Source: an uncultured Phycisphaerales bacterium
GTDB taxonomy: Bacteria; Planctomycetota; Phycisphaerae; SM23-33; FEN-1343
NCBI GenBank assembly: GCA_963785635.1
Contig: CAWAWB010000015.1
Coordinates: 1 to 64,000 of the forward strand
Direction of reading: 5' to 3'
DNA length: 64,000 nt
A model generated the notes under the pieces. The model saw nothing but the letters and a program-made list of their open reading frames with translations, did not search any database and had not been told where the DNA came from. The position numbers were made by a program, and so were the translations under genes. Below, piece after piece: positions 22,239 to 64,000 of the stretch. Position 1 is the first letter of the stretch, and the number at the start of each line of letters is the position of its first letter.

Positions 22239-22257
22239 CAACAAAGGAAGGTCGTGC

Positions 22258-25082: not shown

Positions 25083-25186
25083 CGCCGCCGTGACTTGGCC
25101 AACCCGGCTTTTCGCTCCCGGGGTTGCCTAAGCCCCATTGGGCCCTTCTGCTTGACAATTCCTCCAACTGCGGTTGCACTAGCCGC

Positions 25187-33220: not shown

Positions 33221-33262
33221 GTTTAAGTGCGCCGCGGAATGATGACCACGGAATAGCAGAAG

Positions 33263-35295
33263 ATGAAAAAGGTACTGGTGCTGCTGGGTCTGGTTGCCGC
33301 CATCGGCTTATGCTGGTGGCTGGCGACAAAGAGCGCTCGGCAGACAACCACTGGGACCGCCGCGCCAAAACTTCCCCAGGCCGGGAGCTTTGCCTATCAC
33401 GGCGAGCTGCCCCGCGAATTTCACGAAGCGCCCGTGCTTACCCAGCAGGTGCGCGCGGGCAGACTTCCCCCCGTAAAAGAGCGCCTGCCGGATGAGCCGA
33501 TGGTCGTGCCGGTGGTCGAGAAGATCGGCACGTACGGCGGCACGTGGCATCGCGCCTTCACCGGGCCGACTGACTACCAGAACATCGATCGGCTGATGCA
33601 CGATTTACTGCTGTGCTTCGATCTGGACGGCCGAACGCTGCTGCCCAATATCGCCAAGAGCTGGGAGACAAGCGAGGACGGCCGCGTGTTCACGTTTCAT
33701 CTGCGGCCGGGAATGAAATGGTCGGATGGGGAGCCGTTCACCGCCGATGATTTTGTCTTCGCCTACGAGGATATCGCCCTGAACGACGAAATCAACTCGC
33801 GCAAGCCCGACGCTCTGCGTCTGCGCTCATTGAACGGCCCATCAGAATTTGGCCGGCTGGAAAAAGTGGACGACTTCACCATCCGCTATGTCTTCCCCCA
33901 GCCCAATTACACGTTCATCGACATGGCCGCCGGACTGACAGTCGGCGGCCAGTACGCGCGCGCGTGGGAGTTCCCGCCGTTCGCGCCCGGCACTACCTCA
34001 AGCAGTTTCTCCCCAAGTACGCCGGGGCGGAAAAACTGGAGATGTTGGCCAGGCAGGAGTCGGTTTCCAACTGGGTGGTTCTCTTCCAGAAAAAAGCCCG
34101 TCCGTCTGAAAATCCCGATCTGCCCGTGGTGGGTCCGTGGCGCGTGGCGGCGCCCATGACCGACCAGGTCTGCAAACTGGAGCGAAACCCCTATTACTGG
34201 GCGGTCGACCCCAACGGAAACCAGCTCCCGTACATCGACAACATTTCTCTTCAGCTCACGCAGGAACTGGAGGTGCTGAATCTGCGGGCGATGAGCGGCC
34301 TGATCGACATGCAGCACCGCCACATCCAGTTGGCCAAGTATCCCCTGTTCATGGCCAACGCCAAAAAGAACGGTTACCACGTGTATTGCTGGCCCGGCCT
34401 GTGCGGATCAGAGGCGGCGGTGCTGTTTAACCAGACCTGGCAGGGCGATGCGGAAATAGAAAAGTGGCTGCAAAGCAGGGAATTCCGCGTCGCGCTGTCC
34501 CTGGCGACCGACCGGCGGCAGATCAACGAGCACATTTTCTACGGCCTGGGCGAACCCCGACCGTTCATGGCCCTGGCGGGCAATGTTTATTACCCCGGCA
34601 AGGAATACGAGTTCAAGAACGCCGGATTTGACCTCGCCCAAGCCAACGCGATGCTGGACAGGCTGGGCCTGAACCGGCGGGATGATGCGGGCTACCGGCT
34701 GCGCAGCGATGGCGAAGGCCGGCTCGAGTTGACTATTTCGCTGCCCACGGGCCAATTGCTGGATTACGTGGCTATCGCCGACCTGCTCGTCCAGCAGTGG
34801 GCCAAGGCAGGCATCAAGCTGGACATGGCCGTGGAAGACCGCACCCTCTGGTCCATGCGGCGAGCCACGAACCAGCAGCAGCTTTCTATCTGGGAAGGCA
34901 CAGGCGCGGAGGATCCCTGGTCGGGCGGGGGCACGATCGTGGCCATCGGCGGCAGTTCCGGCATCGCCTCGGCCGTCGGTTTGTGGTGGATGACCGACGG
35001 CGAAAAAGGCCAGCCGCCCACAGGCGATATTCGCAGGCTCCTGGAGCTGTATGAGCGCGGCCGCGCGTTGCCGCTGGATCAGCGCATCGAAATCGGCCGG
35101 GAAATGTGGCGGATTCACGCGGAGAATCAGTTCGTGCTGGGCCTGGTGGGCAACTCCCCCGCCTTTAACGGCGTGGTCATCGTGAAGAATAACTTTCACA
35201 ATGTGCCGGAGCTTGCGCCGAATTCCACGTTCCTGCAAAACCCCGGCATCGCGCGGCCGGAACAGTTTTACATGGATGCTCCGGCCGCCCGGTAA
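33263..35295 (+). CDS. second family-5 substrate-binding protein (paralog), frame interrupted near 33975-33990 (1-bp loss in a C run)
   Basis: About 45% identical to 31154..33220 along its whole length. Joined at ...WEFPPFAP|RHYLKQFLPKYAGAEKLE. Confidence 0.8.
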
Positions 35296-44677: not shown

Positions 44678-45855
44678 CTATAGCCCAGTGTCATAAAGCT
44701 TCACGATCTCATCGATGACGGCATCATCTACGCCGGGCCGCAGGCCGCACACTTCCGCCAGCATGGCCTTAACGCCCTTGGCGGCAAGCTGGGCCTGGAA
44801 CTTTTCATCCGCCGGAAACATCCGCCCCGCCTCATCCACCGCCTTGAACTTCAGGCGCAGGCAACGGTCCGACAAATTGGCGACACATTACCGCCGGTCG
44901 ATTGCACCAGGCGCAGCGCGCCGATGCACCGGTCATCCGGCGCCAGCTTGCGGTACAAATCCCGGCCGACGCGATACACCGAATCATTCAGCGCCACGTT
45001 GCCAAACCGCCGCAAGAGGTCCTCCACGTGCTCCCGCTGATTGGGCTCGTTGAATTCCGTGGGATATCGCTTAATCAAGGCCAGCGCCGAGGCCCACATC
45101 GCCTCCCGCGCGGCGGCGAGAATCTTCGGATCCGCAACGCACTGCGGCAAGAAGTGTTTGCCCGCCAGATGGCCGTGATACGCGGCGGTGGCGTGGCCGA
45201 GGTTGTGAATAAAGAGTTTGCGGTCCACGTAAGCCGCAAAGTTATCTTTCAGCACCAGCCCCGGCACGTTGGGGATTTCGCCCATGAAGGCGGCCCTGTC
45301 GGCGATGATCTGGTTATAGGCCTCCGCCCAAATGACCAGCGGGTCCGCCGCCACCACTGCCGCGGGCATGATGGGCACCATCTTGCCGATCGAAGTTTCG
45401 ACCAGGCCCACGGAGGACATGTCAAACCCGTCGGGCAGCAACGGCATGAGTTTTTCGCGCATCATCGCCGCCGCGCCGCGAAGGTTCTCGCACATGATGA
45501 TGGAAAGCGGCCTTCCCTTGCGGCGGGCGATGCCCGCGGCGATCACATTGGCCAGGCGCGGCAGCACCGCCGGCCCCACCGCAGTGGCCGCCACATCCGC
45601 CTCGCTAAGCGCTGCGGCCACGGCGGCAGTATCGCGGGCATCGAGGGCGCTGACCTTATCCACATGAATGCGGTCCGGCGCCCCCGGCGGCAAGCTATCT
45701 TTGACGATCACATCGTAGCCGCGCCGCTGGTTGAGGGCCTCCACCAGGGATGTGACGGCATCCACAAAAATGACCTCATAGCCGGCCTTGGAAAAAAGCT
45801 GGCCCACCAGCGACCGGCCGATATTGCCGGCCCCAAACTGAACAATCCGCTTCAT
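44678..45855 (-). CDS. mannitol-1-phosphate/polyol dehydrogenase family protein (MtlD-like), frame interrupted near 44865-44880
   Basis: N-terminal MKRIVQFGAGNIGRSLVGQLF Rossmann motif. C-terminal 65 aa sit in the adjacent frame (ORF 44678..44875). Confidence 0.6.
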
Positions 45856-45989
45856 CGCCTTCACCTGAACAAAGTAGCATGGGCGTCTCGCCCATGAGTC
45901 CCACGGGCCTCTGGCCCGTGGCCAGCCCGGGAAAAATAAAACTGACACGCCGAGATGGCCGTGTTACTCACGGGCAAGATGCCCGCGCT

Positions 45990-46345
45990 ACGCGGCATTG
46001 TGGAGCAATTGGCCGGCCATTGCAACGGGTGGCACAGGCTTTCCAGCCTGTGATTCTGCCCACAGCCTTGAAAAGGCTGCTCCACCAGTTTTCGTCACAC
46101 AATCTGGAAAGGCCGTGCCACGGAACGGCCTTGCCGAAAGCCTCCAACCGGTGTAAGCTGCACGGGTTAACGTTATGCGGATGGACGGCCGCGCGGCGTC
46201 TCAGGTCGGCGGCCAAGCACCGGACATTGTTTTCGGGTAACATATTTTCCGGGCCGAGTCTGTGGGCCCTGGGCACGGTCAGGTGGCACAGGCTTTCAAG
46301 CCTGTGGCAGAATCACAGGCTGAAAAGCCTGTGCCACCCTAACGG
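45990..46345 (+). promoter_or_regulatory. ino1 upstream leader with two copies of a double-hairpin module (GGCACAGGC-N6-GCCTGTG...CACAGGC-N6-GCCTGTGCC)
   Basis: Copy 1 at 46020-46075, copy 2 at 46283-46340. The outer arms are reverse complements. Confidence 0.4.
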
Positions 46346-46355
46346 GGTAACCAGA

Positions 46356-47563
46356 ATGAACAAGATTCGAGTCTCCATTGTGGGCGTGGGCAACTGCGCC
46401 TCCTCCCTGATCCAGGGCATTTATTACTATGGCGATCAGTTCGCCAAGGGTGACAAGTCGGGCGTCGGCCTGGCCCACTCGATGCTGGGCGGCTACGCCC
46501 CCGGGGATATCCAGATCGTCGGCGCCATCGACATCGACGCCCGCAAGGTCGGCAGGCCCCTGCACGAGGCCATGTTCGCCCAGCCCAACAACACCAAGGT
46601 CTTCTACGACAGTTTCCAGACCGATGGCGTGGTCGTGCAGATGGGCAACGTCCTGGACGGCGTGGCCGAGCACATGGCCAACTACCCCGAGCGACCAGCG
46701 GTTCGTCGTGGCCGAACGGCCCTTCCGCCACCCGGGCGGAGATCGAAAAGCTCCTGCGCGACACCGGCACGGAAATCCTGATGAACTACCTGCCGGTGGG
46801 CTCGCAGAAGGCCGCGGAGTTCTACGCCGAGTGCTGCCTGGCCACGGGCGTGAGCCTGATCAACTGCATCCCCGTGTTCATCGTCTCCAACCCCGTCTGG
46901 GGCCGCCGGTTCGCCGAGGCCGGCATCCCCTGCATCGGCGACGACATCAAGGCCCAGGTCGGCGCGACCATCGTCCACCGCGTCCTGGCCCGGCTGATGC
47001 AGGAGCGCGGCGCGAAGATCGACGCCACCTACCAGCTCAACACCGGCGGCAACACCGACTTCCTGAACATGCTCAACCGCAGCGCCTGGGCTCCAAGAAG
47101 ATCTCCAAGACCGAGGCCGTGCAAAGTCCAACTCGGACGTGCCCCTGCCGGCTGACCAGGTGCACATCGGCCCGGCCGATTACGTGCCGTGGCAGAAGGA
47201 CAACAAGGTCTGCTTCCTGCGCATCGAGGCCAGGGGCTTCGGCGGCGTGCCGCTGAACCTGGAAGCTGCGGCTGTCGCGTGGAGGATTCGCCCAACTCCG
47301 CCGGCGAGACCATCGACGCCATCCGCTGCTGCAAGCTGGCCCGCGAGCGCGGCGTGGCCGGACCGCTGGAGGCGGTCAGCGCCTATACCATGAAGCATCC
47401 GCCGCGCCAGTTTGCCGATTATACGGCCCGCGAGATGCTGGAGGCCTTCATCAACAACGGCACGGACGCGCGGTACGAGGCCTCGCCTGCGGATGTAGCC
47501 CAGGCGGCTTCAACCTCCATCCCGCGCCCCAGTGCGAAACCGGCGAGAATGGCGAAGGCTTAA
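46356..47563 (+). pseudogene. ino1: myo-inositol-1-phosphate synthase (bacterial/archaeal Ino1 type) disrupted by at least 5 frame changes (about 46690, 46725, 47090, 47132, 47275); pseudogene or error-dense region
   Basis: Recognisable MIPS segments lie in all three frames in order: MNKIRVSIVGVGNCASSLIQG..., [35 protein letters not shown]..., [57 protein letters not shown], ...ETIDAIRCCKLARERGV.... Confidence 0.6.
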
Positions 47564-49390: not shown

Positions 49391-51862
49391 TCATACGCCC
49401 TCCCTCGCCCGCCGAAGCTGGTCGGCCGCATCGCACGCGCGCTGCACGGAGTAACCTTTAAGGGGCAGCACGAACGTGTGTACTCCATCCAGGATGTCCG
49501 AGACCTGCGGGAAGAAGGCATCCTCCACTTCATCGGCCGGCGTGATCCAGTTGCGGGCGCCCACTACCACGGGCGGTGCATCCAGCTCATCGAAGGCCAG
49601 TTGCGTAATGTTGGAGGCCATGGTGTGGAGGTAACTGCCGCGCTCGCAGGCATCGCTGGCCAGGAGAATCTTGCGGGTCTTGGCGACCGATTCCAGCACC
49701 GGCGCATAATTGAAGGGCACCAGCGACCGGGCGTCGATGATCTCCACGGAGAGGCCAAACTGTTTTTCCAGCGCGGCGGCGGCATCCATTGCCCGGTACA
49801 GGGTCGCGCCGATGGTGAGGATGGTCAGATCGCTGCCGGTCTTCTTGATGGCCGGCTCGCCGATGGGGATCTCGTAGCGGCCCCGCGGCACGCCGCCGCT
49901 CTGGAACAATTCGGGCATGTCGTAGATCCGCTGGCTCTCGAAGAAGACGACCGGGTCGGTGCCGGTAAGCGCCGAGTACATCAACCCCTTGGCATCATAG
50001 GGCGTGGCGGGGAACACGACCTTCAGGCCCGGGATGTGGGCACACATGCTCGTCCAGTCCTGGCTGTGCTGGGCGCCGTACTTGGAGCCCACGGACACCC
50101 GCAGCACCACGGGCATCTTCAAAAGCCCGCCGCTCATGGACTGCCACTTGGAGAGCTGATTAAAGATTTCATCGCCCGCGCGGCCCATGAAGTCGCAATA
50201 CATCAGCTCCGCAATCGCGCGGCCGCCTTCCAATGCATAGCCCACGGCCGTGCCAACGATCGCGCCCTCGGAGATCGACGAATTGAAGAGCCGATGATAC
50301 GGCAGCGCCTCGGTCAGGCCGCGATAGACGGCGAACGCCCCGCCCCAGTCGCGGTTCTCCTCGCCGTAGGCGATCAGCGTCGGATCGACGTAGAACTGGT
50401 CGAGAATGGCCTCGAAGATCGCGTCGCGCAGGACCACGCACTTCTGCTTGGAGATAGGTTTGCCCGCCTCATCCAGGCCAAAGCGGCTGCGATTGGCCAG
50501 TTGCTGCACGCGCGGATTCTCCTCCTTGGCGATCAGCACTTCCGCCTTGCGGTTGGGCGCCAGCGATTCGACCTTGGCGTTGGAGAACATTGTCTTATCC
50601 AGCAGGCAGCCGCTCGCCTTCAGGTCCTCGCGCGGCGAGATGGTCAGGTCGGTGGCCTTCTTGAAGGCCTTCAATATCAACGTTTCGGCCTGCGCCGTGA
50701 TGGCGTCGATATCCGCCTGCCCGCACACCTTGGCCGCCACGAGCTGCTGGGCGAAGTTCAGGAGCGGATCGACCTGCTGCCAGCTTTCCAGCTCCTCCTT
50801 GGTGCGATAGCTGGAGGCATCGGAAGGCGAGTGGCCGCTGAAGCGGTATGTGATGGTGTCCAGCAGGACGGGCCCATCGCCGCGCTTCAGGATTTCCTTT
50901 TTGCGGCGGAAGGCGTCGATCACGGCCAGCGGGTTGTAGCCATCCACGCGCTCGGCGTGCACCTGCGTGGGGGAGAGGCCCGCGCCCAGCCGCGCGAGGA
51001 TGCCGAAGCCCATGGTTTCGCCCACGGGCTGGCCGCCCATGCCGTAAAAATTGTTCACGAAATTGAAGATGATGGGCAGTCCGCCGCGATGGGCCTGATC
51101 CCACAGCAGCTTGAACTGGTCCATGTTGGCGAAGCACAGCCCTTCCCACACGGGGCCGCAGCCGGCGGAGGCATCGCCGATATTCGCCACGATAATGCCG
51201 CCGGCCTTGTTTACGTGCTTGAAGAGAGCCGCGCCCACGGCGATATCGCCCGAGCCGCCCACGATGGCGTTGTTGGGGTAGATGCCAAAGGGCGGGAAGA
51301 AGGCGTGCATGGAGCCGCCCATGCCCTTATTGAAACCCTCGCGCCGGGCAAAGATTTCCGCCAGGGCGCCATAGATAAGGTAATCGATGGCCAGTTCGGT
51401 GACACTGCCGTGCTTGCCATCATCCACCACCCGCAGCGTGGCGCCGCCGAAATAGTTTCGCATGATCCGCATGAGCGCCGAATCATCCAGCTTGGCGATG
51501 GCGGACAAACCCTTGGCCAGGATCTCGCCGTGGCTGCGGTGGCTGCCGTAGATATGGTCATCCACGTTCAGCACGAAGGCCTGCCCCACCGCCGCGGATT
51601 CCTGTCCCACGGACAAGTGAGCGGGGCCGCGATGGTTGTACTCGATGCCCTGAAAACTGCCCTTGAGCTTGACCTCGTTGAGCATGGACTCGAACGCGCG
51701 AATGATGGCCATGTCGCGCTGTATGCCCAGCAGCTCATCGCGGCTGTAATTGGCGGTTTCCTGGGCGATAGTCTTGTTGTACTGGCAGACCGGAATCGGC
51801 TGGAACTGGATCGTGCCGCCACTACGCTCGCGCTTGGGATCGATCAACTGAGACTTCGGCAT
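49391..51862 (-). CDS. 2-oxoacid dehydrogenase E1 component, fused alpha-beta (TPP-dependent; acetoin/pyruvate/branched-chain type)
   Basis: 823 aa. The N-terminal half is E1-alpha-like (TPP-binding [13 protein letters not shown]...). The C-terminal half is E1-beta/transketolase-like. Intact, with no frame breaks. Confidence 0.88.
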
Positions 51863-51954
51863 GACTACAACTCCTCATTTCGATTGCGGATTGCGATTGC
51901 GGATTGACTCAACTCAGTGAAGGTTCAATCAGCCATCGCAACGTGCAACCTGGT

Positions 51955-52779
51955 TCATGATTTATTCTCTGAAAGAACCGCCTCGGTGGGCGGTGTGATA
52001 ATCTCGATTTTCCGCTCGTGGAGAAAACGTTGCCATTCGGCTGAAGGAGCGCGATCCGTGATAATCACCGATACTGCATCCCATTCGATGATGCGGCACA
52101 GCGAGGGGGAGGTGAACTTGCTGTGGTCGGCCAGCACCACGGTCTGCCGCGCATTGCGCACGGCCAGGCCGAAGAGGTGCGCACTTTCGATGTCGCTGGC
52201 GGTCAGGCCGAATTCCATGGACAGGCCGTCGGCCCCGATGAACGCGACATACCCTCTCAACCGCTCCAGCGCGGCCGTGGCCAGGGGGCCGATCGTGTCC
52301 ATCCGCCCCGGGCGATACTGGCCCCCGAGCATGATCACGTTGACGTTGGGGGAATCGAGCTCCAGGGCCAGCCGCGCGGAGTTGGCAATGACGGATAGGC
52401 CTTTCTTGCTCTTTAAATGCGGGATCATTTCAAAGCAGGTCGTGCCGGAATCGACAAAAATCTGATCCCCATCCTCCACCCGCGCGGCAGCCAACTGCCC
52501 GATAATTCGCTTGGCCTCCACGTTACGTAAGGCCTTGGAACGAAATGAGAAATCGCTCTTTTTGGGCAGCACCGCCCCGCCGTACACCAGCTCCAGCTCC
52601 CCCGCCTTGGCCATGGCGTGCAGATCGCGGCGAATGGTCGCCCCGGAAGCACCCAGCGATGCGGCCAGGGCAGAAGCGGTAACTTCTCTCTGTTCAAGCA
52701 ATTGCGCAATAATACGGTCGCGCCTCTGGCGTGTGGATGATCGCGTTGCGAAGCCGGGATTTCCGAACTTGTCGGTCAT
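51955..52779 (-). CDS. DeoR/GlpR-family transcriptional regulator
   Basis: N-terminal HTH (RQRRDRIIAQLLEQREVTASALAASLGASGATIRRDL) and DeoR C-terminal sugar-phosphate-binding domain. Confidence 0.85.
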   Translation of the reverse strand: MTDKFGNPGFATRSSTRQRRDRIIAQLLEQREVTASALAASLGASGATIRRDLHAMAKAGELELVYGGAVLPKKSDFSFRSKALRNVEAKRIIGQLAAARVEDGDQIFVDSGTTCFEMIPHLKSKKGLSVIANSARLALELDSPNVNVIMLGGQYRPGRMDTIGPLATAALERLRGYVAFIGADGLSMEFGLTASDIESAHLFGLAVRNARQTVVLADHSKFTSPSLCRIIEWDAVSVIITDRAPSAEWQRFLHERKIEIITPPTEAVLSENKS

Positions 52780-52892
52780 GCTACAGATATTATTACATCA
52801 AACCTGCTCAATTGCAACAGTTTTATGAGCATTTAGTGATCAACTTCGATTGACTACTGATTATCTATGCCGTATAGTTGAAGTGGAAGAAA

Positions 52893-53068
52893 GGCGTTAC
52901 GGATCATGGAACTGGGGAATTTCCCCAGTTCCACAATCCGTAACACGCTTTTCCGACTGCCCAAATTGGGCAGTCGTCGGCTTGGTGGATCAGGTGTGTA
53001 GCGTATACACCTGCGGTCAAGGCAACAATTCAACTGGCAACCGTTGCCAGTTGCACGACCCGACTGAT
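52893..53068. promoter_or_regulatory. array of four distinct palindromes in the DeoR-E2 divergent intergenic region (candidate operators or 5-UTR hairpins)
   Basis: gttacggatcatggaactgggg-aattt-ccccagttccacaatccgtaac (22-bp arms, 2 mismatches). cgactgccc-aaatt-gggcagtcg. ggtgtgta-gcg-tatacacc. caactggcaac-cg-ttgccagttg (11-bp perfect). Confidence 0.5.
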
Positions 53069-53082
53069 ATGGATCGAAATAG

Positions 53083-54606
53083 ATGAAGAAGCTGACACTG
53101 CCTGAGGCGGTAAAGGGAATGATGAGCGGCACCATAATGGCCTGGCTGAAAAGGCCGGGCGATGCAGTTGCCGCAGGCGATGCGCTGGCCAAGGTGCAGG
53201 CCAAGCGCGACATTTTCATTGTCCAATCGCCTGCGGCGGGAAGGCTGGGTGAGATTGCCGCCCCGCAGGGTGCAACGGTCGGTGTGGGAGAGCCCATCGC
53301 GATGCTTGCCGGTGAAGGCGAGACCGCCGCGCCTGCTGCGTCGGCACAGAAAACGCCGGAGCAAGGAAGACCCGCGGCCCCCCCCGCCGCTCCTGCCGGA
53401 GTTGTACCCATCCTCATGCCCAAGGCGGGCAATTCGATGGAGGAAGGCACGATCGTCTCCTGGAAGGTCAAGGAAGGCGAGCGGATTAACAAGGGACAGA
53501 TTCTATTTGAGGTGGAGACAGACAAGGCCGTCGTGGAAGTGGAGGCGGATGTCGCCGGGCGCCTGGCTAAGATCATCGTCGGCGAAGGGCAGACGATCGC
53601 CGTCCTCCAGCCTGTGGCGTATCTGGCGGAAGATGATGGCGCCGTGGCCAATTTCCTGAGTGCGCATGGCGCGGCCGCCGCGCAAGGTGGCGCGGGTCAG
53701 GCTGCGCCGGCAAAGCAGCCATCACCGGTGGCGGCGCAGGCCGCCGCGCCGGCCTGGACTGGCACGCCCGGCAGGGAAGGCCGTCCCAAGGCCTCCCCCG
53801 CCGCGCGAAAGCTGGCTAATGAGCGAGGCGTGGATTTATTGGCCATGGCGTCAGGCAGCGGGCCGGGCGGAAGGATTCTGTCCCCCGATGTGGCCGCCGC
53901 CGTGGCAACAGGAGCGGCCCCCGCCGCACCCGCGCCGGCTGTGGAAGGCGTGGTCTTTCGCCCGCTGGGCCGAATGCGGAAATCCATCGCCAAGAATCTC
54001 ACGCTCTCCAAGCAGACCGTGCCGCATTTTTACATCGAACTGACCATCAATGCCGGCCCCATGATGGACTTCTATCGGCAGGAGAAGGCGAAATATCCGC
54101 TGAGCGTCAACGACGTGCTCATTCGGGCATGCGGGCAGGCGCTGATGGAGTTTCCCGCATTCCGGCGGCGGCTGGAAGGCGATCAATACGCAGAATATCC
54201 TTCGGCCAATATCGGCATGGCGGTGGCCATGGAAGATGGACTCGTCGTGCCCGTGGTTGTGGGCGTGGAGAAAATGAACCTCGAGGAACTGGGGCGGCAG
54301 ACGGCGAAATTGGCGCAGGCGGCCCGCGGCGGGCGCATCGAAACCGCCGCGCCGGCGGTCATGACCATCAGCAACCTGGGCATGTTCGGCACGGAGCGCT
54401 TCAGCGCCATCATCAACCCGCCGGAGGCCAGCATCCTGGCCGTGGGAGCGGTGCGCGAGGAACCCGTCGTGTCCGAGGGTAAAATCATTCCCGCGCGGCG
54501 GCTGACCATGACGCTAAGCTGCGATCATCGCGTGGTGGACGGCGTCATCGCCGCCAAATTCCTGGCGCGGCTGAAGGAACTTCTGGAACAGCCGGCGGCG
54601 GGCTAA
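53083..54606 (+). CDS. dihydrolipoamide acyltransferase (E2) with two lipoyl domains; the first domain is non-canonical at the lipoyl-Lys motif
   Basis: Second lipoyl domain with EVETDKAVVEVEA. E3-binding region. Catalytic C-terminus ...SCDHRVVDGVIAAKFL. Confidence 0.88.
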   Translation: MKKLTLPEAVKGMMSGTIMAWLKRPGDAVAAGDALAKVQAKRDIFIVQSPAAGRLGEIAAPQGATVGVGEPIAMLAGEGETAAPAASAQKTPEQGRPAAPPAAPAGVVPILMPKAGNSMEEGTIVSWKVKEGERINKGQILFEVETDKAVVEVEADVAGRLAKIIVGEGQTIAVLQPVAYLAEDDGAVANFLSAHGAAAAQGGAGQAAPAKQPSPVAAQAAAPAWTGTPGREGRPKASPAARKLANERGVDLLAMASGSGPGGRILSPDVAAAVATGAAPAAPAPAVEGVVFRPLGRMRKSIAKNLTLSKQTVPHFYIELTINAGPMMDFYRQEKAKYPLSVNDVLIRACGQALMEFPAFRRRLEGDQYAEYPSANIGMAVAMEDGLVVPVVVGVEKMNLEELGRQTAKLAQAARGGRIETAAPAVMTISNLGMFGTERFSAIINPPEASILAVGAVREEPVVSEGKIIPARRLTMTLSCDHRVVDGVIAAKFLARLKELLEQPAAG

Positions 54607-54654
54607 TATGCTCTGTTGCCGTGACGTTTGCGGCCGCGACTAGATGGGAATCAC

Positions 54655-56077
54655 ATGAGCAAGAACCATTTCAATATCGTGCTGCTCGGCTCGGCCCGGG
54701 CGGCTACATCGCGGCCATCAAGGCGGCGCATCTTGGCGCATCCGTGGCCGTGGTGGAAAAGGCGCAACTGGGCGGCACCTGCCTCAATAACGGCTGCATT
54801 CCCTCCAAGGCGCTCCTGGCCTCGGCGGCGATGATGCACGAGATCGGCGAGGCGGGCAAGCTCGGCATCAAGGTTGCGGGTGAAGTCATCTGCGACTGGA
54901 CGGCCGTGCAGCAGCGCAAGGACCGCACGCTGGCCCGCCTGCGGCAGGGCATCGCCAATCTCTTCAAGGGCGGCAACATCGAGCTTTTCCAGGGCACGGG
55001 CAAGCTGGATGGCCCGGGGCGAATCGCCGTGATGGACGCCAAAGGCCAGACGCAGATTATCACCGCCGACAAAATCGTGCTGGCCACGGGCTCGGTGCCT
55101 TCGCGGATCCCCGGCTGGCCGACCGATCCGGCGCTGGTGTGCACCTCGGATGAGGCGCTGCACTGGAAGGACCTGCCTGGGCGCCTTTTGATCGTTGGCG
55201 GCGGCGTCATCGGCTGCGAATTCGCGTGCATGATGCAGGCCGTAGGCGTAAAGGTGACGGTAGTGGAAATGATGCCGCGACTTTTGCCGGAGATGGATAG
55301 CGACCTGTCCGCCGAGCTAACCAAGGTCTTTAAAGCGCGGCAGATCGCCTGCCACGTGGGTACGAAGGTTGCGGATCTCTCTATCGCGGATGGCCGCGTG
55401 AAAGCGCGGCTGGATAATGGCCAGACGATCGACGCCGACCGCGTGCTGGTGGCCACGGGCCGCCGCGCGGCCACGCAGGATATTGGCCTGGAAAGCGTGG
55501 GACTCACAACCGACCGCGGCTTTATCCGCGTGAATGACCGGATGGAAACCGCCGTCAATTGCATCTATTGCATCGGCGACGCCAACGGCCGCATTCTGCT
55601 GGCCCACGCGGCCAGGCGCAGGGCGAAGTCGCCGTGGCCAATGCGCTCGGCGCAAATCGAATCTTCGATGCCCCGGTGCCGCTGACCGTGTACACGTTCC
55701 CGGAGATTGCCGGCGTGGGCCTGACCGAAGAGCAGGCGGACAAGCGGAACATTCCCATCTCCGTGGGCGCGTTCCCCATCGGCTACCTGGGCAAGGCCAT
55801 GGCGGTGGGACACGGCGAGGGCATGATCAAGGTCATCCGCGACCACTCCAATGATGCGCTCTTAGGCGTACACATGTTCGGCCACAACGTGACGGAGGTA
55901 ATTGCCTGCACCACGGCCATGCTGGGCGAAAAGGCCACGGTGACTGAACTTGCCGAGACGATCTTCGCCCACCCGACCATCTCCGAGGCGGTCAAGGAGG
56001 CCGCCGAGGATTCCTTTGGCCAGGCCATCCACCTGCCGCCGAAGAAGGTGGTTTCAGTCATGGCGGGAGTCGTTTAA
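54655..56077 (+). CDS. lpdA: dihydrolipoamide dehydrogenase (E3), two frame interruptions near 54697 and 55612 (1-bp losses)
   Basis: FAD-binding MSKNHFNIVLLGSG|PGGYIAAIKAA, redox-active GGTCLNNGCIPSK, NAD-binding region, and dimerisation domain in the third ORF (...AHPTISEAVKEAAE). Confidence 0.85.
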
Positions 56078-56094
56078 TTTGCCCCAAATGAAGA

Positions 56095-56267
56095 GGAACA
56101 CAAAGACCACAAAGGTCACAAAGAACACAAAGGTCACAAAGAACACAAAGAAAGAAAACTCAGAGTAAAAGCCAGACCAAGACACGGGCTCTTCTTTTCT
56201 TTTGACATTGGATTTATTCTTTCTTCGTGTCCTTTGTGTTCTTTGTGACCTTTGTGTTGCTCTTTGT
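56095..56267. repeat. inverted pair of CACAAAG-type heptamer arrays between lpdA and the dehydrogenase gene
   Basis: Left gaacacaaagaccacaaaggtcacaaagaacacaaaggtcacaaagaacacaaag. Right tcttcgtgtcctttgtgttctttgtgacctttgtgttgctctttgtt. Confidence 0.85.
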
Positions 56268-56282
56268 TTACAGAGGCTATTC

Positions 56283-57983
56283 ATGATCGCATCGCAGCAA
56301 ACGATTCCGCAGACGCAGCAGGCCGTGCAACTGGTCGGGCCGGATGTTTTGAAGCTCAATACCGCCAAGCCCGTGCCGCCGGTGGGCCCGCATCATCTGC
56401 TGGTGCGCGTGGATGCGGTGGGGCTGTGTTTTTCTGATCTAAAACTGCTCAAGCAGTTCAATGCGCATCCCCGCAAGGGTAAAGTGGTTTCCGGCGTTGA
56501 TCCGCAGGTGCTCGCCGCGCTGCCCAGCTACGTTCCTGATAAGGCCCCTACCGTGCCGGGGCATGAAGTTGTCGGCCAGATCGTGGCCGTGGGCAAAGAG
56601 GTCAAAAAGCATAAACTGGGCGAGCGCGTGTTGATCCAGGCGGATTTTCGCCTGCTGCGCACGGCCGGCTCCAACGGCGCGTTCGGGTACAACTTCGAGG
56701 GCGGGCTCCAGCAGTACGTGCTGTTTGATGAGCGGGTGGTGCTGGAAGCGGACACAAACCAGAGATACCTCATCCCCGTCGGGCCGGAGCTGTGTAATTC
56801 CGCCGTGGCGCTGGTCGAGCCCTGGGGCTGCGTCGAAAACGCCTACGCCAATGGAGAGCGGCAATCGATATTGCCGCGCGGCCGGTTGCTGGTCGTGACC
56901 GACAAGGGCCGCAACATCCTGGGCCTGCGCGAGAGTTTTGCCTCCGTCTCCGCCGATCACGCCCCCGCCTCTATCGCTGCGGTCTGCGGAGAAGATGCAC
57001 AATACGAAGCCATCGCCAGGCTCGGCCCATCCTTTATCCGTACAGACGACATCGACAGCCTCGCCAACGAAGGCTTCGACGATATCGTCTATTTCGGCCG
57101 CGAGGCGGCGACCATAGAAAAACTGAACGATAAACTGGCCGCGCGGGGAATCATCAACATCGTCCTGGGGGGCCAGGTCATAGGCCGCAAGGTTTCCGTA
57201 GGCGTGGGCCGCCTGCACTACGGTTTTACGCGCTGGATCGGCACGACGGATACGAGCGCGGCCGCCGCGTATCGCACGATTCCGGCCAATGGCGAACTCC
57301 GGGCGGGCGATAGAATCTGCATCGTCGGGGCCGGCGGGCCCATGGGGCAGATGCACACGCTGCGAGCCGTGTGCAGCGGCCGCAAAGGCATCGAGGTCAT
57401 CGGCACGGACATCGACGATGGACGCCTGGAGGCGCTGCGGAAAAAGGCCGAGCCTTTTGCACGCAGAAACGGCATCTCTTTGAACCTTGTGAATACCAAC
57501 CGCCAGAAGCTGGAAGGCGAGTTCTCGTACTTCGCGCTCATGGCCCCCGTGGGCCAGCTTGTGGCCGAAGCCATCGCCCGCGGCGGCGAGGGCGCACTGA
57601 TCAACGTGTTCGCCGGCATCCCCGCACCCATTCGCCACGAGCTGGACCTGGATGCGTACATCCAGCGCGGCCATTTCATGTTCGGCACGAGCGGCTCGCG
57701 CATCGAGGATATGCGGGCCGTGCTGGATAAAGTCACCGCCGGCACGCTGGATACCAACGCCTCCGTTGACGCCGTGTGCGGCATGGCCGGGGCCATCGAC
57801 GGCATTCACGCAGTGGAAAATAGAACGTTGGCCGGCAAGATTATCGTGTATCCGGCCCTTACGGAAATGGGGCTCATACCCCTGTCGGAACTAGGCAAAG
57901 AATTCCCGGCCGTCGCCGCGAAACTGGAACACGGCATGTGGACGGGCGCGGCCGAACGGAAATTTTTGAAATCGGCACGGTAA
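56283..57983 (+). CDS. MDR-superfamily (zinc-type alcohol dehydrogenase-like) oxidoreductase, unusually long (566 aa) with a large internal insertion
   Basis: GroES-like N-terminal domain (HHLLVRVDAVGLCFSDL) and Rossmann fold ICIVGAGGPMGQMHTL. Confidence 0.6.
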   Translation: MIASQQTIPQTQQAVQLVGPDVLKLNTAKPVPPVGPHHLLVRVDAVGLCFSDLKLLKQFNAHPRKGKVVSGVDPQVLAALPSYVPDKAPTVPGHEVVGQIVAVGKEVKKHKLGERVLIQADFRLLRTAGSNGAFGYNFEGGLQQYVLFDERVVLEADTNQRYLIPVGPELCNSAVALVEPWGCVENAYANGERQSILPRGRLLVVTDKGRNILGLRESFASVSADHAPASIAAVCGEDAQYEAIARLGPSFIRTDDIDSLANEGFDDIVYFGREAATIEKLNDKLAARGIINIVLGGQVIGRKVSVGVGRLHYGFTRWIGTTDTSAAAAYRTIPANGELRAGDRICIVGAGGPMGQMHTLRAVCSGRKGIEVIGTDIDDGRLEALRKKAEPFARRNGISLNLVNTNRQKLEGEFSYFALMAPVGQLVAEAIARGGEGALINVFAGIPAPIRHELDLDAYIQRGHFMFGTSGSRIEDMRAVLDKVTAGTLDTNASVDAVCGMAGAIDGIHAVENRTLAGKIIVYPALTEMGLIPLSELGKEFPAVAAKLEHGMWTGAAERKFLKSAR

Positions 57984-58141
57984 GGGATGTGGCATGGGCA
58001 TCTTGCCCATGAATGGCCGTCTCGCCCGTGCATAAGTTTTCGCAAATTAATTGTAGGAGCAAGATGCTCCCGCGACTGGAGGGCAAGAGGCCGTGCCACC
58101 AAAGAATCGCCGCGGCCGCTGTAATTCCTTGTTTCCTTCTT

Positions 58142-61100
58142 CTACACCACGCGAATGATGAAATCCGTGAAGCTCTCGGGGGTCGCATCTGTCGGATTGG
58201 GCCAGGTGTAGCTCGTCGTGGCATCGTGGTAATTCAGCCGCGTAATGGAGTTGGCTGCCAGGCCGAACTTCTTGCCGGTGTTGTCGAACTTCGCGTAGGC
58301 GATATTCATCGTCCCCAGCTTGGCCGCCACGATATCGCTGTTGATGAAGCTGTCCACGTGGCTGCGGGATTCCAGCAGGCCGCGCACGGTCACCGAGCCG
58401 ATGCTCGCATACGGGTTAAAGACGGTGTCATCCAGCGGTGTCGCGGGCAGTCCGGCCAGCGCACTTGCGGCGAAGTCGCCCGCGTCCAGGTAGCCGGCGT
58501 AAATGTTGCTGTCGGTTATGGTTCCCGCCTGGATGGACCCGATATTTCCGTTGGAGAGAATGTCGCTGGACATGATCGAGCCGGCCACCTTCAGGCTGGA
58601 TAGCGCCCGCGTCGGCGCCGCCTCCTGGCTGAATATGCCGGTCCATTGATTCACATCGGCACCGACCGTAATGTTTCCGGCGGATATAATCGTCCACTGG
58701 CCAGACAGGTTTCCGAAGATATATGCCGCGCTGACTGAACCGTGCTCGACATCCAACGTGGCGGCGAAGCTGCCATCCGCGGCGCCGCTGTTTCGGTTCA
58801 ACCTCGTGGCGATCAGGCCGACGGTTCCACTGGAGGTCAGTGTTCCGGTAAACCAGCGGCCTACCGTCAACGAGCGCACGTTGCCGACAGTCCAATCACC
58901 CACACTGACGGTGCCGGCGATGGATGCCGTCAGCGCCGGCATGCTTGCGCCGCTGCCATTCAAAGTGACATCCGGCTGGAAATCCCCCGGGTGCCCGCTG
59001 GCGCCGGTAACCATCAGGTTGGCCAGGGATGGAGCCGTAATCGAGTCTAACTGACCACTGCTTTGGCCGTCCAGCCAGCTTACGGCCTTCAGCGATTTGA
59101 TGGCCATATCGGAATCAATCTGAAGGTCCTGCACATTGCCCAGCGTGATGGCCGTGGCGAGCTTGCCCGCAGGAAACGCGTGCGTCTGGCCGTCAGAAGC
59201 GAGCTTCTGATCGATGGAAAGCACGTCTTCCGCACCGGAAGCCGCCGTCACGTCGCCCAGCACAATCTGCGCGGCCGTGCCGTTAATGGTCATATTCCCA
59301 TCCAGCACGACGTGAGGGGCGACAATGGATGCCACACTGCCATCCGCGCTGATCTCGCCGATGGAGGTGGTCGTGCCAAACGGCGTGGTGATGGTGACGT
59401 GCGTCCTGGCTGTTGCGCCGCCGATATCCAGCGCATCGATCTTGCCGGTGGTTGTGGCGTCCATCGTCAACTGAACATATCCGCCGCCGGAGATGGAGAT
59501 GGTAACCGGGGTGCCATTCTCATCGGTGACCGTTGCGCAGGCCACCGATATGGACCAGACGGCTCTGCTGGCCGGCATCCAGGGCGGTCAGCCCCGCCGC
59601 GCCATTGGCCAGCAGCCAGAGCGGCTGCTGGGTGGCGGTATTGATGCTGACCTGGCGGCCGGCGTAGCTATAGTCGTTAGCCGTTGTGCCATCGGATGCC
59701 TTAACGCTCCAGGCGCTCTTATACGTCGATTGGATCACAATGTGAGAAAGATCCAGCAGGCTGAGGATGTCAATCCCGCCCTCGTATCCGACCATGGCCG
59801 TCGTGCCGGAAACCGACAGCGTGGGCAGCACATTCTTGGCCGAATAAGTATGCGCCAGAAGGCCATGAGACGCGGGTGGCCGAAAGTCGAAACGTTATAG
59901 ACGCGCAGGCCATCGCTGCAAAGGACATACAACCTGTTGCCGTCCATGGCGGAGGCGAAGATGGCCTTTTTCACCAGGACCTGGTCAATCTTTACGTACG
60001 CACTGCCGGAAAGAATCTCGTTTTGGTCACCTTCAAAATTAAGGATAGTTCGTGTTTGCGACTGGCTCTTACTGTCGAAAGATACGATGTATCCATTGAG
60101 ATCCACATCCAGGACGTAGCCGTTGCTGACATAGACCCCCGTCGCCCAGGGAATATTCAAAGTTATATTCTCGGGCACTGGGGGAAGTTCTCGTATTTTA
60201 TGGAGGTGGCAAACGAAGGATATAACGATACGATAACCCGCAGGGGCTTGCGGGCATCCTGGGTGGCATTCGGCGTGGGGTCATGGCCAAGCACCTTCGG
60301 GTTGGTCACATCCAGCATGTACAGGCCCTGGCCCGGCGTGCCCACATAAGCAATCCGGTCCACCTCGGAGCCGAACTGCGTGGTCGAGCGGTCCTCAACC
60401 GTCACGGAATCGGCGTCCATGCTGAAAGTATCGAGATACTGGAGAACATTCGTCGTGTCGGTGGGATTGATCCTCAGGCTGACCAATCCCTGCGCACCGG
60501 CGGCCAGTAACAGCACCTGGTATGGGCCATTCGCATCCTGGTAGGTCAGCAGCTTCATGTCGTTAATTGAAAGCGAAGTACTCGAACTGGGGTTCCAGGC
60601 GCCGACGGGCGTGGGATCGGAGTTATTCGTCGTCAGATCGGAATTCTTATAGACCTCAAGCCCCTGGTCGGGCGTGCCCACAAACAGGAAATCGTCGGTC
60701 TGCATGGAGAAAACGGCCGTGTCATCCAGGTGCCATTGGGGCTGGACGACCTGGGTGGGACCGGGCGTGTTCGGCGCAAAAACGATGTTGAAGTTCTGGC
60801 TCTTGGGACGCTGCGTCGTATTGGTGGTCTGGTCCAGGACATTGTTGACATCCTGTTCTTCCCTGACCGTCACGTTCACGGTCACCACGCCGTAGAAGCC
60901 ATTCGGCGCGGTGATGGTGAAGATTCCGCTGTCGTTGGTTACCGTCGGTTCCTGCACCGTGCCGGTCATGCCGCTGATGATCTGGATCGAGCTATGCACG
61001 ACCTGGTCATCGGCGACGTTCAGCTTGAAGTAGGCCACATTGCTCGTCACCGCCGTCTGGTCGGCCGAAGTATTGCCGCTGGCATCCGTCAGCGTCAGTG

Positions 61101-64000
61101 TGTCGAATGTGGGCCTGCTGGCGCCCAGGCAGCTTACATAGAACTGAAAGACGGGCGACACCACGTTCCCGCCATCGGCTGACTGCGTCCACACCCATAT
61201 CCAAAACGGCTGAAGGTTTTGGCTGTAGTCGGATGGAAGCTCGACCTGCATCATGTACACGGCCAGAGACTTGTTCTTGCCCTGATAATTATCGGAGATG
61301 GTCCGGACCTTGATCTGGACATCGCTGCCCCCCGCGTCGGGCACATACGAATCGGCCGTCCTGACCACGATCCCCTGGCTGTCAGGTGCGGACTGGTCGC
61401 CCGATAGGTTCGTTGGATTCGTCGACTCGAAGCGCATCTCGATTTCCGGCTGGTAGGCGCTGAGGTCCTGATTGGTGAGGTTATCACTGCCGTCGGAGAC
61501 AGTGTTCACCATCTGAAGCTGGTTAACGGAGGACTTCGCCAGGATGCTGATGGTTTTTGTGACCGCCGTGCCACTGGAGTCGGTAACCGTAATCTGCACC
61601 TGCGCCGGACCGGTGAAGTTCTTGTCCGCGCTGACCATCAGGACCGCATCCTGATTATTCTGGCTGGAATTGATGATCTGCACGGATTTGAGCCGCGGCT
61701 CCGCAACGGGCTTGCCGCTGGCATCCGCTGGCCTATCAATAATCGCATTTAATGTATCCCAGCCGCTGATCATCTGACCGAAAATCGCATACCCGCTGGC
61801 GTTTACGGGCTCCTGCGTAATGAAGAAGCGGCAATCGCCGGTGCCGTCGCCCCCGTTGTTGGCCATGGCCAGAACGCCCGAACCCGCAAAGCTAAGATTT
61901 TTGTAGACCGTCGTGGTTTCAAAGGATGTGTTAATGTCGCCCAGCCCCGAAGAGCCCGTGCCATCGCCTTTCACCGCGTCGCCCGTCAGGAAAACCTCCC
62001 CAGGCACAACGCCGTACACCGGCACATTCGTGTAAAAGGCCGGGTGTGTGCTGTCAGGGGCGACCAGCTTGCCGTTGACGACGGCCTCTTGGGCCAGATC
62101 GATAAACCGCTGCACCGCGGCGGGCGCGAGGCTCTTATACAGCATCACGTAGATCGTGCCGAGCGTCCCATCATCCACCAGCGTCTCGGGAATGCCGTCG
62201 CCGTTGTTGTCCACCAGGTGCGTGCTGTCAAAGGTCAGCTTGGCGTAGACAACGGGCTGTTGCTGCTCCCAGGTGAAGGTCAGGCCGGGAGTATCGCTGG
62301 TCACGCTGTATGTCAGGCCCTGGCCAGGGGCATCCGTTCCTGCGATGGGGATGGCCAGTTGCGTGCCATCCGTGGGCGCCTGGAACACCGAGCCGGGGAT
62401 GTTCATGCCGGTCTGGAGGCCCGCGATCTGGAAGCTCTGCTCCTGGCTGGGCTCATCCGGCAATTCATTTACGCTCGCGCTGACCGTGGCATTGAAGGCC
62501 GAGCCGTCGTACGAGGTCGGCAAGGTCACGTGCAGAGTCCAGCCGCCGGCCGCATCGCCGTCGACGGAATAGTTAATGGCGCCAGGCCCCTGGTAGTTAT
62601 TTGACAAGGTGATTTGCAGCGTCCGCACAAAGTCTGGATCATCCACAAATCCTATGTTCAGCGGAATATTGAGCTGGCCGCTGGCGGCGTTGGAAATATC
62701 CGCTATGGGCGGCAGGTCAAATTGCTTCAGATTGACCGTGAAGGTCATGGACGAAACCGACGTGCCGCCCACAGGCGTAACGCTGACCGTCACATGCGCG
62801 GTGGCGGCGGTATTGGAGACTGGAGGCCGTCAGCACCAGCGTGTTGGCATTGTTGTTAACAGTCTGGAAACTGGCAGTCAGTCCGGATACAGCGGAACCG
62901 TCATCGGCCAGGATACTCGTTACCGTGGGGTTGTAATACTGTTGAATCTCGATCGGCAGGTTCAGCGTCTGGCCATCCAGCAGCACCTGGTCGGCAACCT
63001 GGGTAATCGGGCCTGAAGTAGCCGAAAGATTCTGTACCACCGGCGTGGCGTTGCCGAAATTGGTCAAGTCGGCCTCGATGATCACCGTGAAGGTTGAATT
63101 GTCATACAGGGCCCCCGGCGTCAGCTTCACCTGCCAGTTGCCATTGCCCAGATTTGTGTTCTGCACCAGCATCTGGTCGGCGGGATGGTAATTGGAAAAG
63201 GCCGTCACATTCAGGTTAAAGCCCTGAGGGCTGTTGTAGGTCACCGTGTACTGCTGGCCGGGCTGCTCCAGATCGATCGAGGAAATCCCCGAGATGGACG
63301 GCAGGTCCGGCTCGGTGGATTGAATGACAAAGGTCTGCGTCGTTACGCCGCCATGGCCATCATCCAGTTTTACCGATATCTGCTCCGAACCGCTGAAGCC
63401 GGCATCCGGCGTGATCAGAAGGGAGCCGGCCTCATTGTTGTGGACGATGGTCACGGACTGAAGTTTCGGCGTGTCCAATGGTTTGTTGTTGGAATCGGCC
63501 TGCCGGTTGATGATGTCGGTAATCACGTCCCAGCCCGAAATGACCTGGCCGAAGATGGGATACATCTGGGCAGGGGTTTTCGTGCCGTCGCCACTGGCCG
63601 AGAACGGCGCATCGGTAATGAAGAACTGATCGTTGCCCGTGTTAGGAACCGCGTTGCCGCTTTGATCTCCCTGCTCCGCCAGGCCCAGCACGCCCACGCC
63701 CTCATAGCCAAAAATGCCGAGGTTATTGTCGCCGGCGGTGGCGCCGTAAGAATCAGTAACGTTCGGCAAGGGGCTGGTGCCCGTGCCGTCGCCGTTGGTG
63801 GCGTCGCCGGATTGAATGATGAACTCCGGAATGACGCGGTGCACCAGCACATTCGTGTAGAAAGCCGGGTCGGCGGCGGTGGGATTCTGGGCCTTGCCGC
63901 CGGAGGTGATGTACTTCGTCGCCAGCGTGATAAACTGCTGCGCGGCCGTGGCGCCGGCAGTCCCAAATAAACTCGGATCATCAAATAACTGGATCACGAC
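58142..64000 (-). CDS. giant secreted/surface protein (more than 1,900 aa, continues beyond the window end) containing two cyclophilin-type PPIase-like domains; at least 4 frame interruptions (about 62825, 60170, 59850, 59565)
   Basis: Contiguous minus-strand ORFs 62717..63997, 60163..62793, 59735..60178, 59520..59831 and 58142..59578 join end to end. Two cyclophilin-like segments (...AFYTNV.VH/YGV.PG.....GD...GDGTG.S......FITQ/D.P.....Y.IFGQ.ISGWD). Thr/Ser/Gly/Asn-rich beta-repeat-like regions. Confidence 0.65.

Follow-up and report, generated by a model that had tools for sequence, protein, structure and literature searches.

Among bacteria, the cyclophilins examined so far are small, soluble enzymes. 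In eukaryotes, cyclophilins are also found in multidomain proteins, among them Cyp40 (with TPR), the WD40-cyclophilins, and RanBP2 (reviewed in PMC13162259). For the giant exported proteins of the Omnitrophota, a conserved parvulin-type peptidyl-prolyl isomerase (PPIase) gene lies beside secretion genes (bioRxiv 10.1101/2023.11.21.568195). The stretch of DNA analyzed here (the window; 64,000 nt) ends in a gene for a giant protein whose nearest relatives are in the Planctomycetota, and its source is probably a planctomycete. This protein is one member of a large uncharacterized family with strongly conserved cyclophilin catalytic residues. We found no published paper describing a family that combines cadherin-like, cyclophilin, propeller, and beta-helix domains.

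Five ORFs lie on the minus strand between positions 58142 and 64000 (stop to stop, 64000-62720, 62829-60166, 60280-59738, 59894-59523, and 59587-58145, in frames 0, 1, 0, 2, and 0, respectively). The first-pass annotation had read these contiguous ORFs as a single giant protein, and this reading was correct. They are one gene encoding a beta-rich, multidomain protein of ~2,000 amino acids (aa) or more, because they are collinear with intact relatives, because synteny is conserved, and because a complete propeller extends across frameshifts 2 to 4. By tblastn, all five pieces were collinear with the intact ortholog P0012 (2,617 aa; segments aa 120-458, 495-630, 1178-1995, 1998-2082, 2072-2200, and 2204-2617), and the same collinear alignment was obtained with P0002 and other relatives, including the L001, L002, and L012 proteins. 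The neighborhood of the P0012 gene (L080) is that of the window gene (ADH_N, lpdA, E2, DeoR, E1). The giant protein is 38 to 43% identical to its ortholog versus 64 to 87% for the neighboring genes, a difference that fits an exposed, fast-evolving protein.

The window holds the C-terminal ~1,952 codons of this gene (58142..64000, minus strand) plus its stop codon at 58142-58144, and the joined translation is thus ~1,952 aa long. As had been proposed, the protein exceeds 1,900 aa and continues past the window: the source's own gene call, P0019, adds 22 aa to the frame past position 64000. The N-terminal ~100 to 120 aa lie beyond that position, and the full length is about 2,050 to 2,100 aa. Its described richness in Thr, Ser, Gly, and Asn was borne out by the composition of the corrected protein (10.4, 9.2, 9.1, and 6.4%, respectively).

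Two cyclophilin-fold segments had been recognized from the sequence alone, and both scored well above the gathering threshold of Pfam family PF00160, which is 21.7 bits. Cyclophilin domain 1 (63446..64000, minus strand) scored 65 bits (E = 1.2e-17; aa 10-183 of ORF 62717-63997) and was aligned by phmmer to the cyclophilin 4s1j. Cyclophilin domain 2 (61678..62163, minus strand) scored 67.6 bits (E = 1.9e-18; aa 211-372 of ORF 60163-62793) and was aligned to 2poe and 2gw2. The joined protein matched the model in two stretches, with 128.4 bits and an E value of 3.7e-37. Neither a lack of cyclophilin score nor a division into separate genes, either of which would have undone the first-pass annotation, was found. 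The GDGTG-type loop and the FFIT motif that it had listed are each present in two versions in the corrected protein (GDATNGDGTG and GDAVKGDGTG; FFIT...YPIFGQVISGWD and FFIT...YAIFGQMISGWD).

The residue tables separate the two domains. In cyclophilin A (CypA) numbering, domain 1 retains R55, F60, Q63, A101, Q111, and F113; it deviates at N102 (E) and H126 (Y) and has insertions in two loops. Domain 2 has lost four of the five core positions (R55G, F60E, Q63L, and Q111R; F113 is still F), and its counterpart in P0012 is degenerate as well (E, G, Y, E, F). Conservation of the catalytic residues, raised earlier as a check, therefore holds for domain 1, apart from H126, and not for domain 2. A catalytic module and a degenerate binding domain had been offered as alternatives; both apply, one to each domain. 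Judged by these residues, a PPIase role is plausible for only one of the two domains, and domain 1 is apparently an active PPIase. Its N102E change and two loop insertions could impair catalysis.

The remaining domains, all on the minus strand, are of types typical for extracellular proteins, as had been suggested. The order within the window is cyclophilin 1, Ig, ~95-aa repeats, cadherin-like, cyclophilin 2, Ig, further beta domains, propeller, and beta-helix. Directly after cyclophilin 1 is an Ig-like domain of the Big_9/Cadherin_5 type (63314..63463; PF17963, 29.7 bits; PF17892, 27.2 bits). Two copies of a ~95-aa repeat (63023..63307 and 62425..62718) were detected by jackhmmer within the family set; the repeat is family specific and has no Pfam model. 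A cadherin-like domain precedes cyclophilin 2 (62193..62391; alignment columns 1-60) and matches the precyclophilin segment of the relatives, with a profile match from position ~5. After cyclophilin 2 is a Big_9-like Ig domain (61543..61662), which is below the cutoff for PF17963 (E = 0.0038) and aligns with the segment after domain 1 and with its equivalents in the relatives.

A seven-bladed beta-propeller of the LVIVD-repeat type follows (59547..60753), with frameshifts 2 and 3 inside it and its end at frameshift 4; when corrected across these frameshifts, the stretch is predicted to form a complete propeller. The window protein gave no match to LVIVD (PF08309) at E ≤ 1, but its propeller region aligns with the homologous region of relatives that do score (P0012, 24.4 bits; P0002, 50.7 bits; P0003, 53.8 bits). 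The C terminus is a right-handed beta-helix of 467 aa (58145..59545) that is conserved in the family and ends in ...FTDFIIRVV; the nearest proteins in fold are the secreted adhesins EtpA, HMW1, UpaB, and Ag43.

We defined the family as proteins having a cadherin-like/cyclophilin/Ig head, then a propeller, and then a C-terminal beta-helix, in that order, with a hydrophobic ...(I/V)R(V/L)(V/I) strand as the last of the helix. The window protein falls within this definition (profile matches at 32-207 and 642-798 for the cyclophilins, 1101-1511 for the propeller, and 1511-1976 for the helix). At least 333 genomic loci, nearly all in metagenome-assembled genomes of Planctomycetota, encode family members, and the module is matched by at least 569 cluster representatives (E ≤ 1e-30). 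The claim that cyclophilins embedded in giant surface proteins are unusual thus stands against characterized proteins only, and fails within the Planctomycetota. Most members are 1,000 to 2,600 aa long, and their cyclophilin lies ~110 residues into the protein, as a rule preceded by an LE.R.LL motif. Among 139 relatives, 102 are at least 1,000 aa long, the median start of the first cyclophilin is aa 109, this start falls within the first 200 residues in 125, and 92 have the LE.R.LL motif; all 68 that have both propeller and beta-helix have the order cyclophilin, propeller, beta-helix. In the ortholog and most relatives, the region corresponding to the off-window N terminus consists of this LE.R.LL (LEPR-XLL) motif and, after it, a cadherin-like domain. 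The motif is LESRLLL at aa 25 in P0012, and P0002 scored 16.3 bits against the LEPR-XLL model (NF012209), for which the cutoff is 17.

All five core residues are retained in 146 of 177 family cyclophilin domains. Both R55 and F60 are present in all 85 domains from genomic loci, and R55 is present in 110 of 112 single-cyclophilin proteins. Other family members also have two or three cyclophilin domains; in such proteins the core is intact in 25 of 28 first copies versus 18 of 32 later copies (Fisher P = 0.009).

The gene is broken into its five ORFs by four 1-nt frameshifts, all on the minus strand. Frameshift 1 is one extra base, placed at 62812 as the best guess (range, 62720-62829) from the frame map, the junction reading, the P0012 sequence ASVTAATARVTVTA, and the reconstruction. 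At frameshift 2 (60181) one base is missing from a C5 run (TTCCCCCAG), where P0012 reads KYQNFPRATQL. Frameshift 3 (59852) is also a missing base (TGGCGC[C]ATACT; P0012, ISFWRHEYSAG) and falls where a predicted beta-strand ends. Frameshift 4 (59546) is one extra base (P0012, MVQISTRATIRDVNGTP). We infer that these are assembly errors, which is likelier than gene decay because the housekeeping genes hom, apgM, lpxB, and lpdA in the window are split too, as are an SBP gene, ino1, and an MCP gene. The C5 run at one junction and the absence of in-frame stops are further points in favor of error. That the ORFs are separate genes, as in the public annotation (e.g., P0001, 861 aa; P0019, 449 aa), is extremely improbable. 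The source record does list separate proteins, but the alignments to intact, undivided proteins run without a break through each junction, the ORFs overlap in differing frames with no intergenic space, and two junctions are within one propeller fold with a third at its C-terminal end; we rejected this reading. More serious, albeit still unlikely, is that the frameshifts are real mutations and that the protein is no longer produced in this organism. Loss of surface-protein genes is common, a homopolymer of at least 4 bases is present at just one of the four sites, and the density of frameshifts, 4 in 5.9 kb, is ~6-fold that in the other 58 kb (Poisson P ~0.006), although the 7 counted there are a lower bound. 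However, 1-nt indels of the same type in essential or housekeeping genes of the window demonstrate that an error process was operating, and a hypervariable gene is a likely site of consensus errors in metagenome assembly. In addition, there is no nonsense codon in the ~1,950 codons of the reconstruction, the GC3 (0.73 to 0.78) resembles that of other genes, and the corrected sequence retains the conserved family positions and a complete predicted propeller and beta-helix.

With the gene read as intact, its protein is probably exported and adhesin-like, acting at or beyond the cell surface; the adhesin-like features are a beta-helix fold near those of EtpA, HMW1, UpaB, and Ag43 and the cadherin-like, Big_9, and LVIVD domains. 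A point against this is that the N-terminal regions of the relatives do not resemble Sec signal peptides of the classical type. In the protein as we picture it, the propeller and beta-helix would serve for binding or as a scaffold, the N-terminal cyclophilin would be a working prolyl isomerase, and cyclophilin 2 would be a noncatalytic copy kept for structure or binding. On balance we favor this combination, namely, one gene with assembly-error frameshifts and an exported adhesin-like product having an active N-terminal foldase and a noncatalytic second cyclophilin. Because cyclophilin 1 would come out ahead of the rest of the protein during export, it could isomerize prolines of the long beta-rich chain behind it as that chain folds, and it may act on other exported proteins too. 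Our more specific proposal, that it is a foldase fused in cis for the ~2,000-residue chain, and perhaps for other exported giants, with the degenerate copies being relic spacers or binders, is tentative. The conserved pocket would fit binding of proline peptides without turnover just as well. It is possible, if doubtful, that the cyclophilins are nonenzymatic adhesin heads gripping a proline-peptide ligand on prey, host, or substrate. Such a head would be N terminal, at the opposite end from the beta-helix, as two-partner and autotransporter adhesins likewise have a distal functional head; the conserved pocket residues double as binding residues, and the degenerate copies kept by the window protein, and by its ortholog as well, imply that the fold is valuable without catalysis. 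From CypA enzymology, however, R55 is required for catalysis rather than binding, and its near-invariance in the genomic-locus and single-cyclophilin sets, together with the significantly better conservation of first copies, argues against a purely binding role. We think it improbable that the beta-helix degrades polysaccharides outside the cell as a lyase, hydrolase, or depolymerase, which would make the protein a large extracellular enzyme and no adhesin.

In the Planctomycetota, whose surface biology is poorly understood, a large family of giant, probably exported proteins has as its constant N-terminal module a cyclophilin whose active site is conserved. Outside the cytoplasm there are no ATP-driven chaperones. 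If active, the module would give very large beta-rich proteins a self-contained catalyst of folding there; alternatively, it would represent a new type of adhesin head, one directed at proline. Were the cis-foldase proposal true, a built-in catalyst of folding would be present in hundreds of giant surface proteins of planctomycetes, a mode of extracytoplasmic folding undescribed for any bacterial adhesin. As the window also shows, the many 1-nt indels of this assembly break up long genes, and public databases then list the pieces as if each were a protein in its own right.

Compared with single-domain cyclophilins (human CypA and bacterial PpiA and PpiB; PF00160), the window domains have the same fold, HMM family, and CypA-type GDGTG loop, and domain 1 has the six CypA residues given above. 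They differ in being set between cadherin-like and Ig domains of a ~2,000-aa protein, in the N102E, H126Y, and loop changes of domain 1, and in the lost catalytic core of domain 2. SurA, PpiD, PrsA, and Legionella Mip resemble domain 1 in the role proposed for it, that of an extracytoplasmic PPIase with exported proteins as its substrates, and Mip, a PPIase exposed at the surface, has a part in the interaction with the host. These proteins are of the parvulin or FKBP type, small, separate, acting in trans, and experimentally studied, and we found no sequence relationship between them and the window protein. With EtpA, HMW1, FHA, UpaB, and Ag43 only the beta-helix fold is shared (12 to 16% identity). 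Unlike the helix of two-partner-secretion and autotransporter adhesins, that of the window protein is C terminal, not N terminal; no Pfam or NCBIfam match to a TPS domain or a C-terminal beta-barrel translocator was found in it, and there was no conserved partner or neighbor gene among 42 loci.

The likeness to the LVIVD-repeat cell-surface proteins (PF08309; PMC2447325) is through the relatives and the ortholog, which score for LVIVD, whereas the window protein itself does not. The family shares its N-terminal LE.R.LL with the LEPR-XLL giant proteins (NCBIfam NF012209), although the window protein's own N terminus lies off the window. Eukaryotic multidomain cyclophilins likewise join a cyclophilin to protein interaction modules, one of which is a beta-propeller in the case of the WD40-cyclophilins (PMC13162259), but are intracellular with other partner domains, whereas the window protein is bacterial, with extracellular-type domains and an N-terminal cyclophilin. 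The Omnitrophota giants differ in having a separate parvulin gene by a secretion system, whereas here the cyclophilin is fused in cis with no adjacent secretion genes. Both cases are from the PVC superphylum and tie a very large exported protein to a PPIase (bioRxiv 10.1101/2023.11.21.568195), and the Omnitrophota pairing offers an analogy for a foldase.

Five minus-strand reading frames with short overlaps tile positions 58142 to 64000 (stop to stop: 64000-62720, frame 0; 62829-60166, frame 1; 60280-59738, frame 0; 59894-59523, frame 2; and 59587-58145, frame 0). The long pieces all have GC3 values of 0.73 to 0.78, resembling the rest of the window's genes. When the cadherin-like/cyclophilin/Ig module (alignment A1) was the query, a full HMMER profile search yielded an intact relative of 2,617 aa, P0012. 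It is collinear with all five pieces (aligned stretches aa 120-458, 495-630, 1178-1995, 1998-2082, 2072-2200, and 2204-2617), and, as the first-pass annotation had proposed, the five frames make up one protein rather than separate genes, since the alignment bridges every junction at 35 to 43% identity. The same order is found in the shorter relatives P0002 and P0003 and in the giant ORFs of five further family loci (L001, L002, L008, L011, and L012). The frameshift-corrected protein has 1,976 aa, counting two X placeholders where pieces join and 22 residues taken from P0019, which is the source record's call for the first ORF, and contains no internal stop codons. Because position 64000 aligns to about aa 110 to 160 of the relatives, roughly 100 to 120 N-terminal residues are missing from the window. 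We hold the single gene and its architecture, taken together, to be very probable.

P0012 is encoded on the ENA metagenome contig ERZ27297438 k141_1238095 (locus L080), where the order E1, DeoR, E2, lpdA, ADH_N, giant protein, spanning 18291-27343, is that of the window (49394-58000). Its neighbors ADH_N, lpdA, E2, DeoR, and E1 are 64 to 87% identical to the window copies, versus 38 to 43% for the giant protein, and on the strength of these neighbors P0012 is a syntenic ortholog. It has an additional module of ∼550 aa with a third cyclophilin, which is degenerate too. Around the start of the window's ADH_N-type gene are two mutually inverted tandem arrays of 9-nt units, GAACACAAA (6.3 copies) and TTCTTTGTG (4.2 copies); of the two arrays, at 56096-56152 and 56221-56258, one lies in the gap after lpdA and the other just inside the ADH_N frame. 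Such arrays might pair into a long hairpin or serve as a repeated regulator-binding site. A scan downstream of the giant gene's stop codon found no terminator.

Reading the junctions against P0012 placed four single-base indels: an extra base at ∼62812 (inside the 62720-62829 overlap), a missing base at 60181 in a C5 run, a missing base at 59852 (TGGCGC[C]AT), and an extra base at 59546. Programmed frameshifting was rejected because the four shifts go in both directions and share no slippery motif, and because like indels occur in unrelated housekeeping genes. Single-base indels split into two frames the genes for homoserine dehydrogenase (13221-14589), phosphoglycerate mutase (apgM, 14724-15972), LpxB (25094-26327), and a family-5 solute-binding protein (33257-35292), and probably an MCP gene (17147 to ∼19400) and ino1 (45774-47152); lpdA (54483-56074) is also in two frames, with the junction near 55613. 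On this contig a frameshift occurs about once per 8 kb or more, and the proteins called from it in public databases are broken up as a result.

These splits in housekeeping and other genes argue for an indel-error process acting contig-wide, so that an assembly artefact is the more economical, and most likely, account of the giant gene's fragmentation. That the gene is instead a real pseudogene is suggested by the density of its frameshifts, 4 in 5.9 kb versus at least 7 in 58 kb elsewhere (Poisson P of ∼0.006, with the figure for the rest of the window being a lower-bound count). Consensus errors are also likely in a gene that evolves fast within a mixed population. We consider a pseudogene unlikely.

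Both cyclophilin segments named in the first-pass annotation score far above the 21.7-bit cutoff of Pfam PF00160, the first in the first ORF (aa 10-183, E value of 1.2e-17, 65 bits) and the second in the second ORF (aa 211-372, 1.9e-18, 67.6 bits), and the motifs it quoted are in the sequence. After each comes a Big_9/Cadherin_5 Ig-like match. The annotation had left open whether such modules are catalytic or degenerate, and alignment to human CypA, the roles of whose residues are known, gives a different answer for each: the core is kept in domain 1 and lost in domain 2. Domain 1 keeps R55, F60, Q63, A101, Q111, and F113; its departures are E at N102, Y at H126, and insertions in two loops. 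The alignment at A101-N102-A103 is ambiguous, in that HMMER puts a 7-aa insertion before "NA" whereas MAFFT and the ortholog favor N102E, which is the more likely reading. In domain 2, positions 55, 60, 63, and 111 are G, E, L, and R, a reading borne out independently by phmmer alignments to 2poe and 2gw2. Judged by these residues, domain 2 cannot be a conventional PPIase, and only domain 1 of the two could be catalytic. The cyclophilin fold of domain 2 is nevertheless retained. The ortholog's counterpart is degenerate as well, and thus the catalytic loss is older than the split of the two lineages.

The first-pass annotation, largely right otherwise, regarded this architecture as unusual, but it is common in Planctomycetota. 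Scanning one genome per species with a degenerate pattern confirmed at least 333 loci. The full profile search, which was required to bring the family into view, turned up 569 representatives of clusters at 50% identity (E values of ≤1e-30); word-indexed homolog searches gave only 3 and 4 matches. Almost all of the 79 distinct loci that were kept come from Planctomycetota MAGs; Verrucomicrobia, Lentisphaeria, and Bryobacteraceae contribute a few. The ORFs usually measure 1,000 to 3,300 aa, several have two cyclophilins, and the closest match to the window protein in the scan is 38 to 43% identical. At two Pirellulaceae/Planctomyces loci (L022, 3451-13834; L035, 9230-19174), giant cyclophilin genes of ∼1,450 to 1,790 aa each are paired in tandem, which suggests local duplication. 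Across 42 loci there was no conserved neighbor gene (transporter or partner); the recurring neighbor clusters proved to be shadow ORFs within the giant gene.

Architecture was counted in the 139 nonredundant cyclophilin-bearing proteins among the best 150 profile matches. The median start of the first cyclophilin is aa 109, and in 125 of the 139 it begins within the first 200 aa. Lengths reach at least 1,000 aa in 102, the propeller is found in 87, and the beta-helix is found in 70; all 68 relatives with both have the order cyclophilin, propeller, helix. Near the N terminus, 92 of the 139 carry LE.R.LL, the motif that NCBIfam calls LEPR-XLL (on that model P0002 reaches 16.3 bits, cutoff 17). 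R55 and F60 are kept in 85/85 domains from genomic loci, where the search pattern partly fixed Q111 and F113 but not R55, F60, or Q63. All five core residues are kept in 146/177 domains of the protein set. In 25 of the 28 proteins with two or three cyclophilins the first copy is intact, as against 18 of 32 later copies (Fisher P = 0.009).

Between the modules sits a family-specific repeat of ∼95 aa that has no Pfam model (signature ...NY.G.G...Y.L.V.LP..YDG..F.V.V.A...). Two clear copies are at 63023-63307 and 62425-62718 on the minus strand, and P0016, another family member, has up to 16 (aa 318-2550); the repeat probably represents a new Ig-like spacer domain. The C terminus has an adhesin-like fold. 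The C-terminal domain and the short ORFs match no known family in Pfam or NCBIfam, and a PDB sequence search with the domain gave no match; a faint match to CglE (E value of 0.0024, 17.8 bits versus a cutoff of 70) was set aside as a chance match. The last strand at the very C terminus is alike in many family members, ...GDF.VR(L/V)(V/I) (FTDFIIRVV in the window, 58145-58180, minus strand), and may be a beta-helix cap or a sorting or anchoring signal.

The protein is T/S/G/N rich, contains 4 Cys, and is poor in charged residues. From this composition, from recognizable domains that are all of extracellular type, and from evolution much faster than that of its neighbors, we infer that it is exported. 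That an intact cyclophilin sits so constantly at the leading end suggests that this domain would act as a foldase in cis for the beta-rich chain trailing out of the cell or, alternatively, as a proline-directed binding head at the distal end of an adhesin. Either specific mechanism is tentative, and somewhat less likely than not to be correct. R55 is important for turnover, not binding, and its near-universal retention favors true catalysis. That giant exported proteins need a PPIase is plausible by analogy, because Omnitrophota, a related phylum, pair such proteins with a conserved parvulin PPIase gene beside the secretion genes (bioRxiv 10.1101/2023.11.21.568195).

Our literature search found no paper on giant bacterial surface proteins with embedded cyclophilins or on this family, and no relevant paper joining cyclophilin with LVIVD, planctomycetes, or LEPR-XLL. 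In the passages of a 2026 review of microbial cyclophilins (PMC13162259) that a term search matched, the multidomain forms treated are of eukaryote type only. All domains of the window protein fall into known folds or families, and relatives are already tagged PF00160 and PF08309 in public databases. Having no TPS domain, barrel, or partner gene, the protein falls outside the TPS and autotransporter adhesins. Among multidomain or extracytoplasmic PPIases it is best regarded as a variant with a new architecture, and within its large planctomycete family, itself uncharacterized, as an ordinary member. It does not amount to a categorically new system, but it lends itself well to a simple biochemical test.
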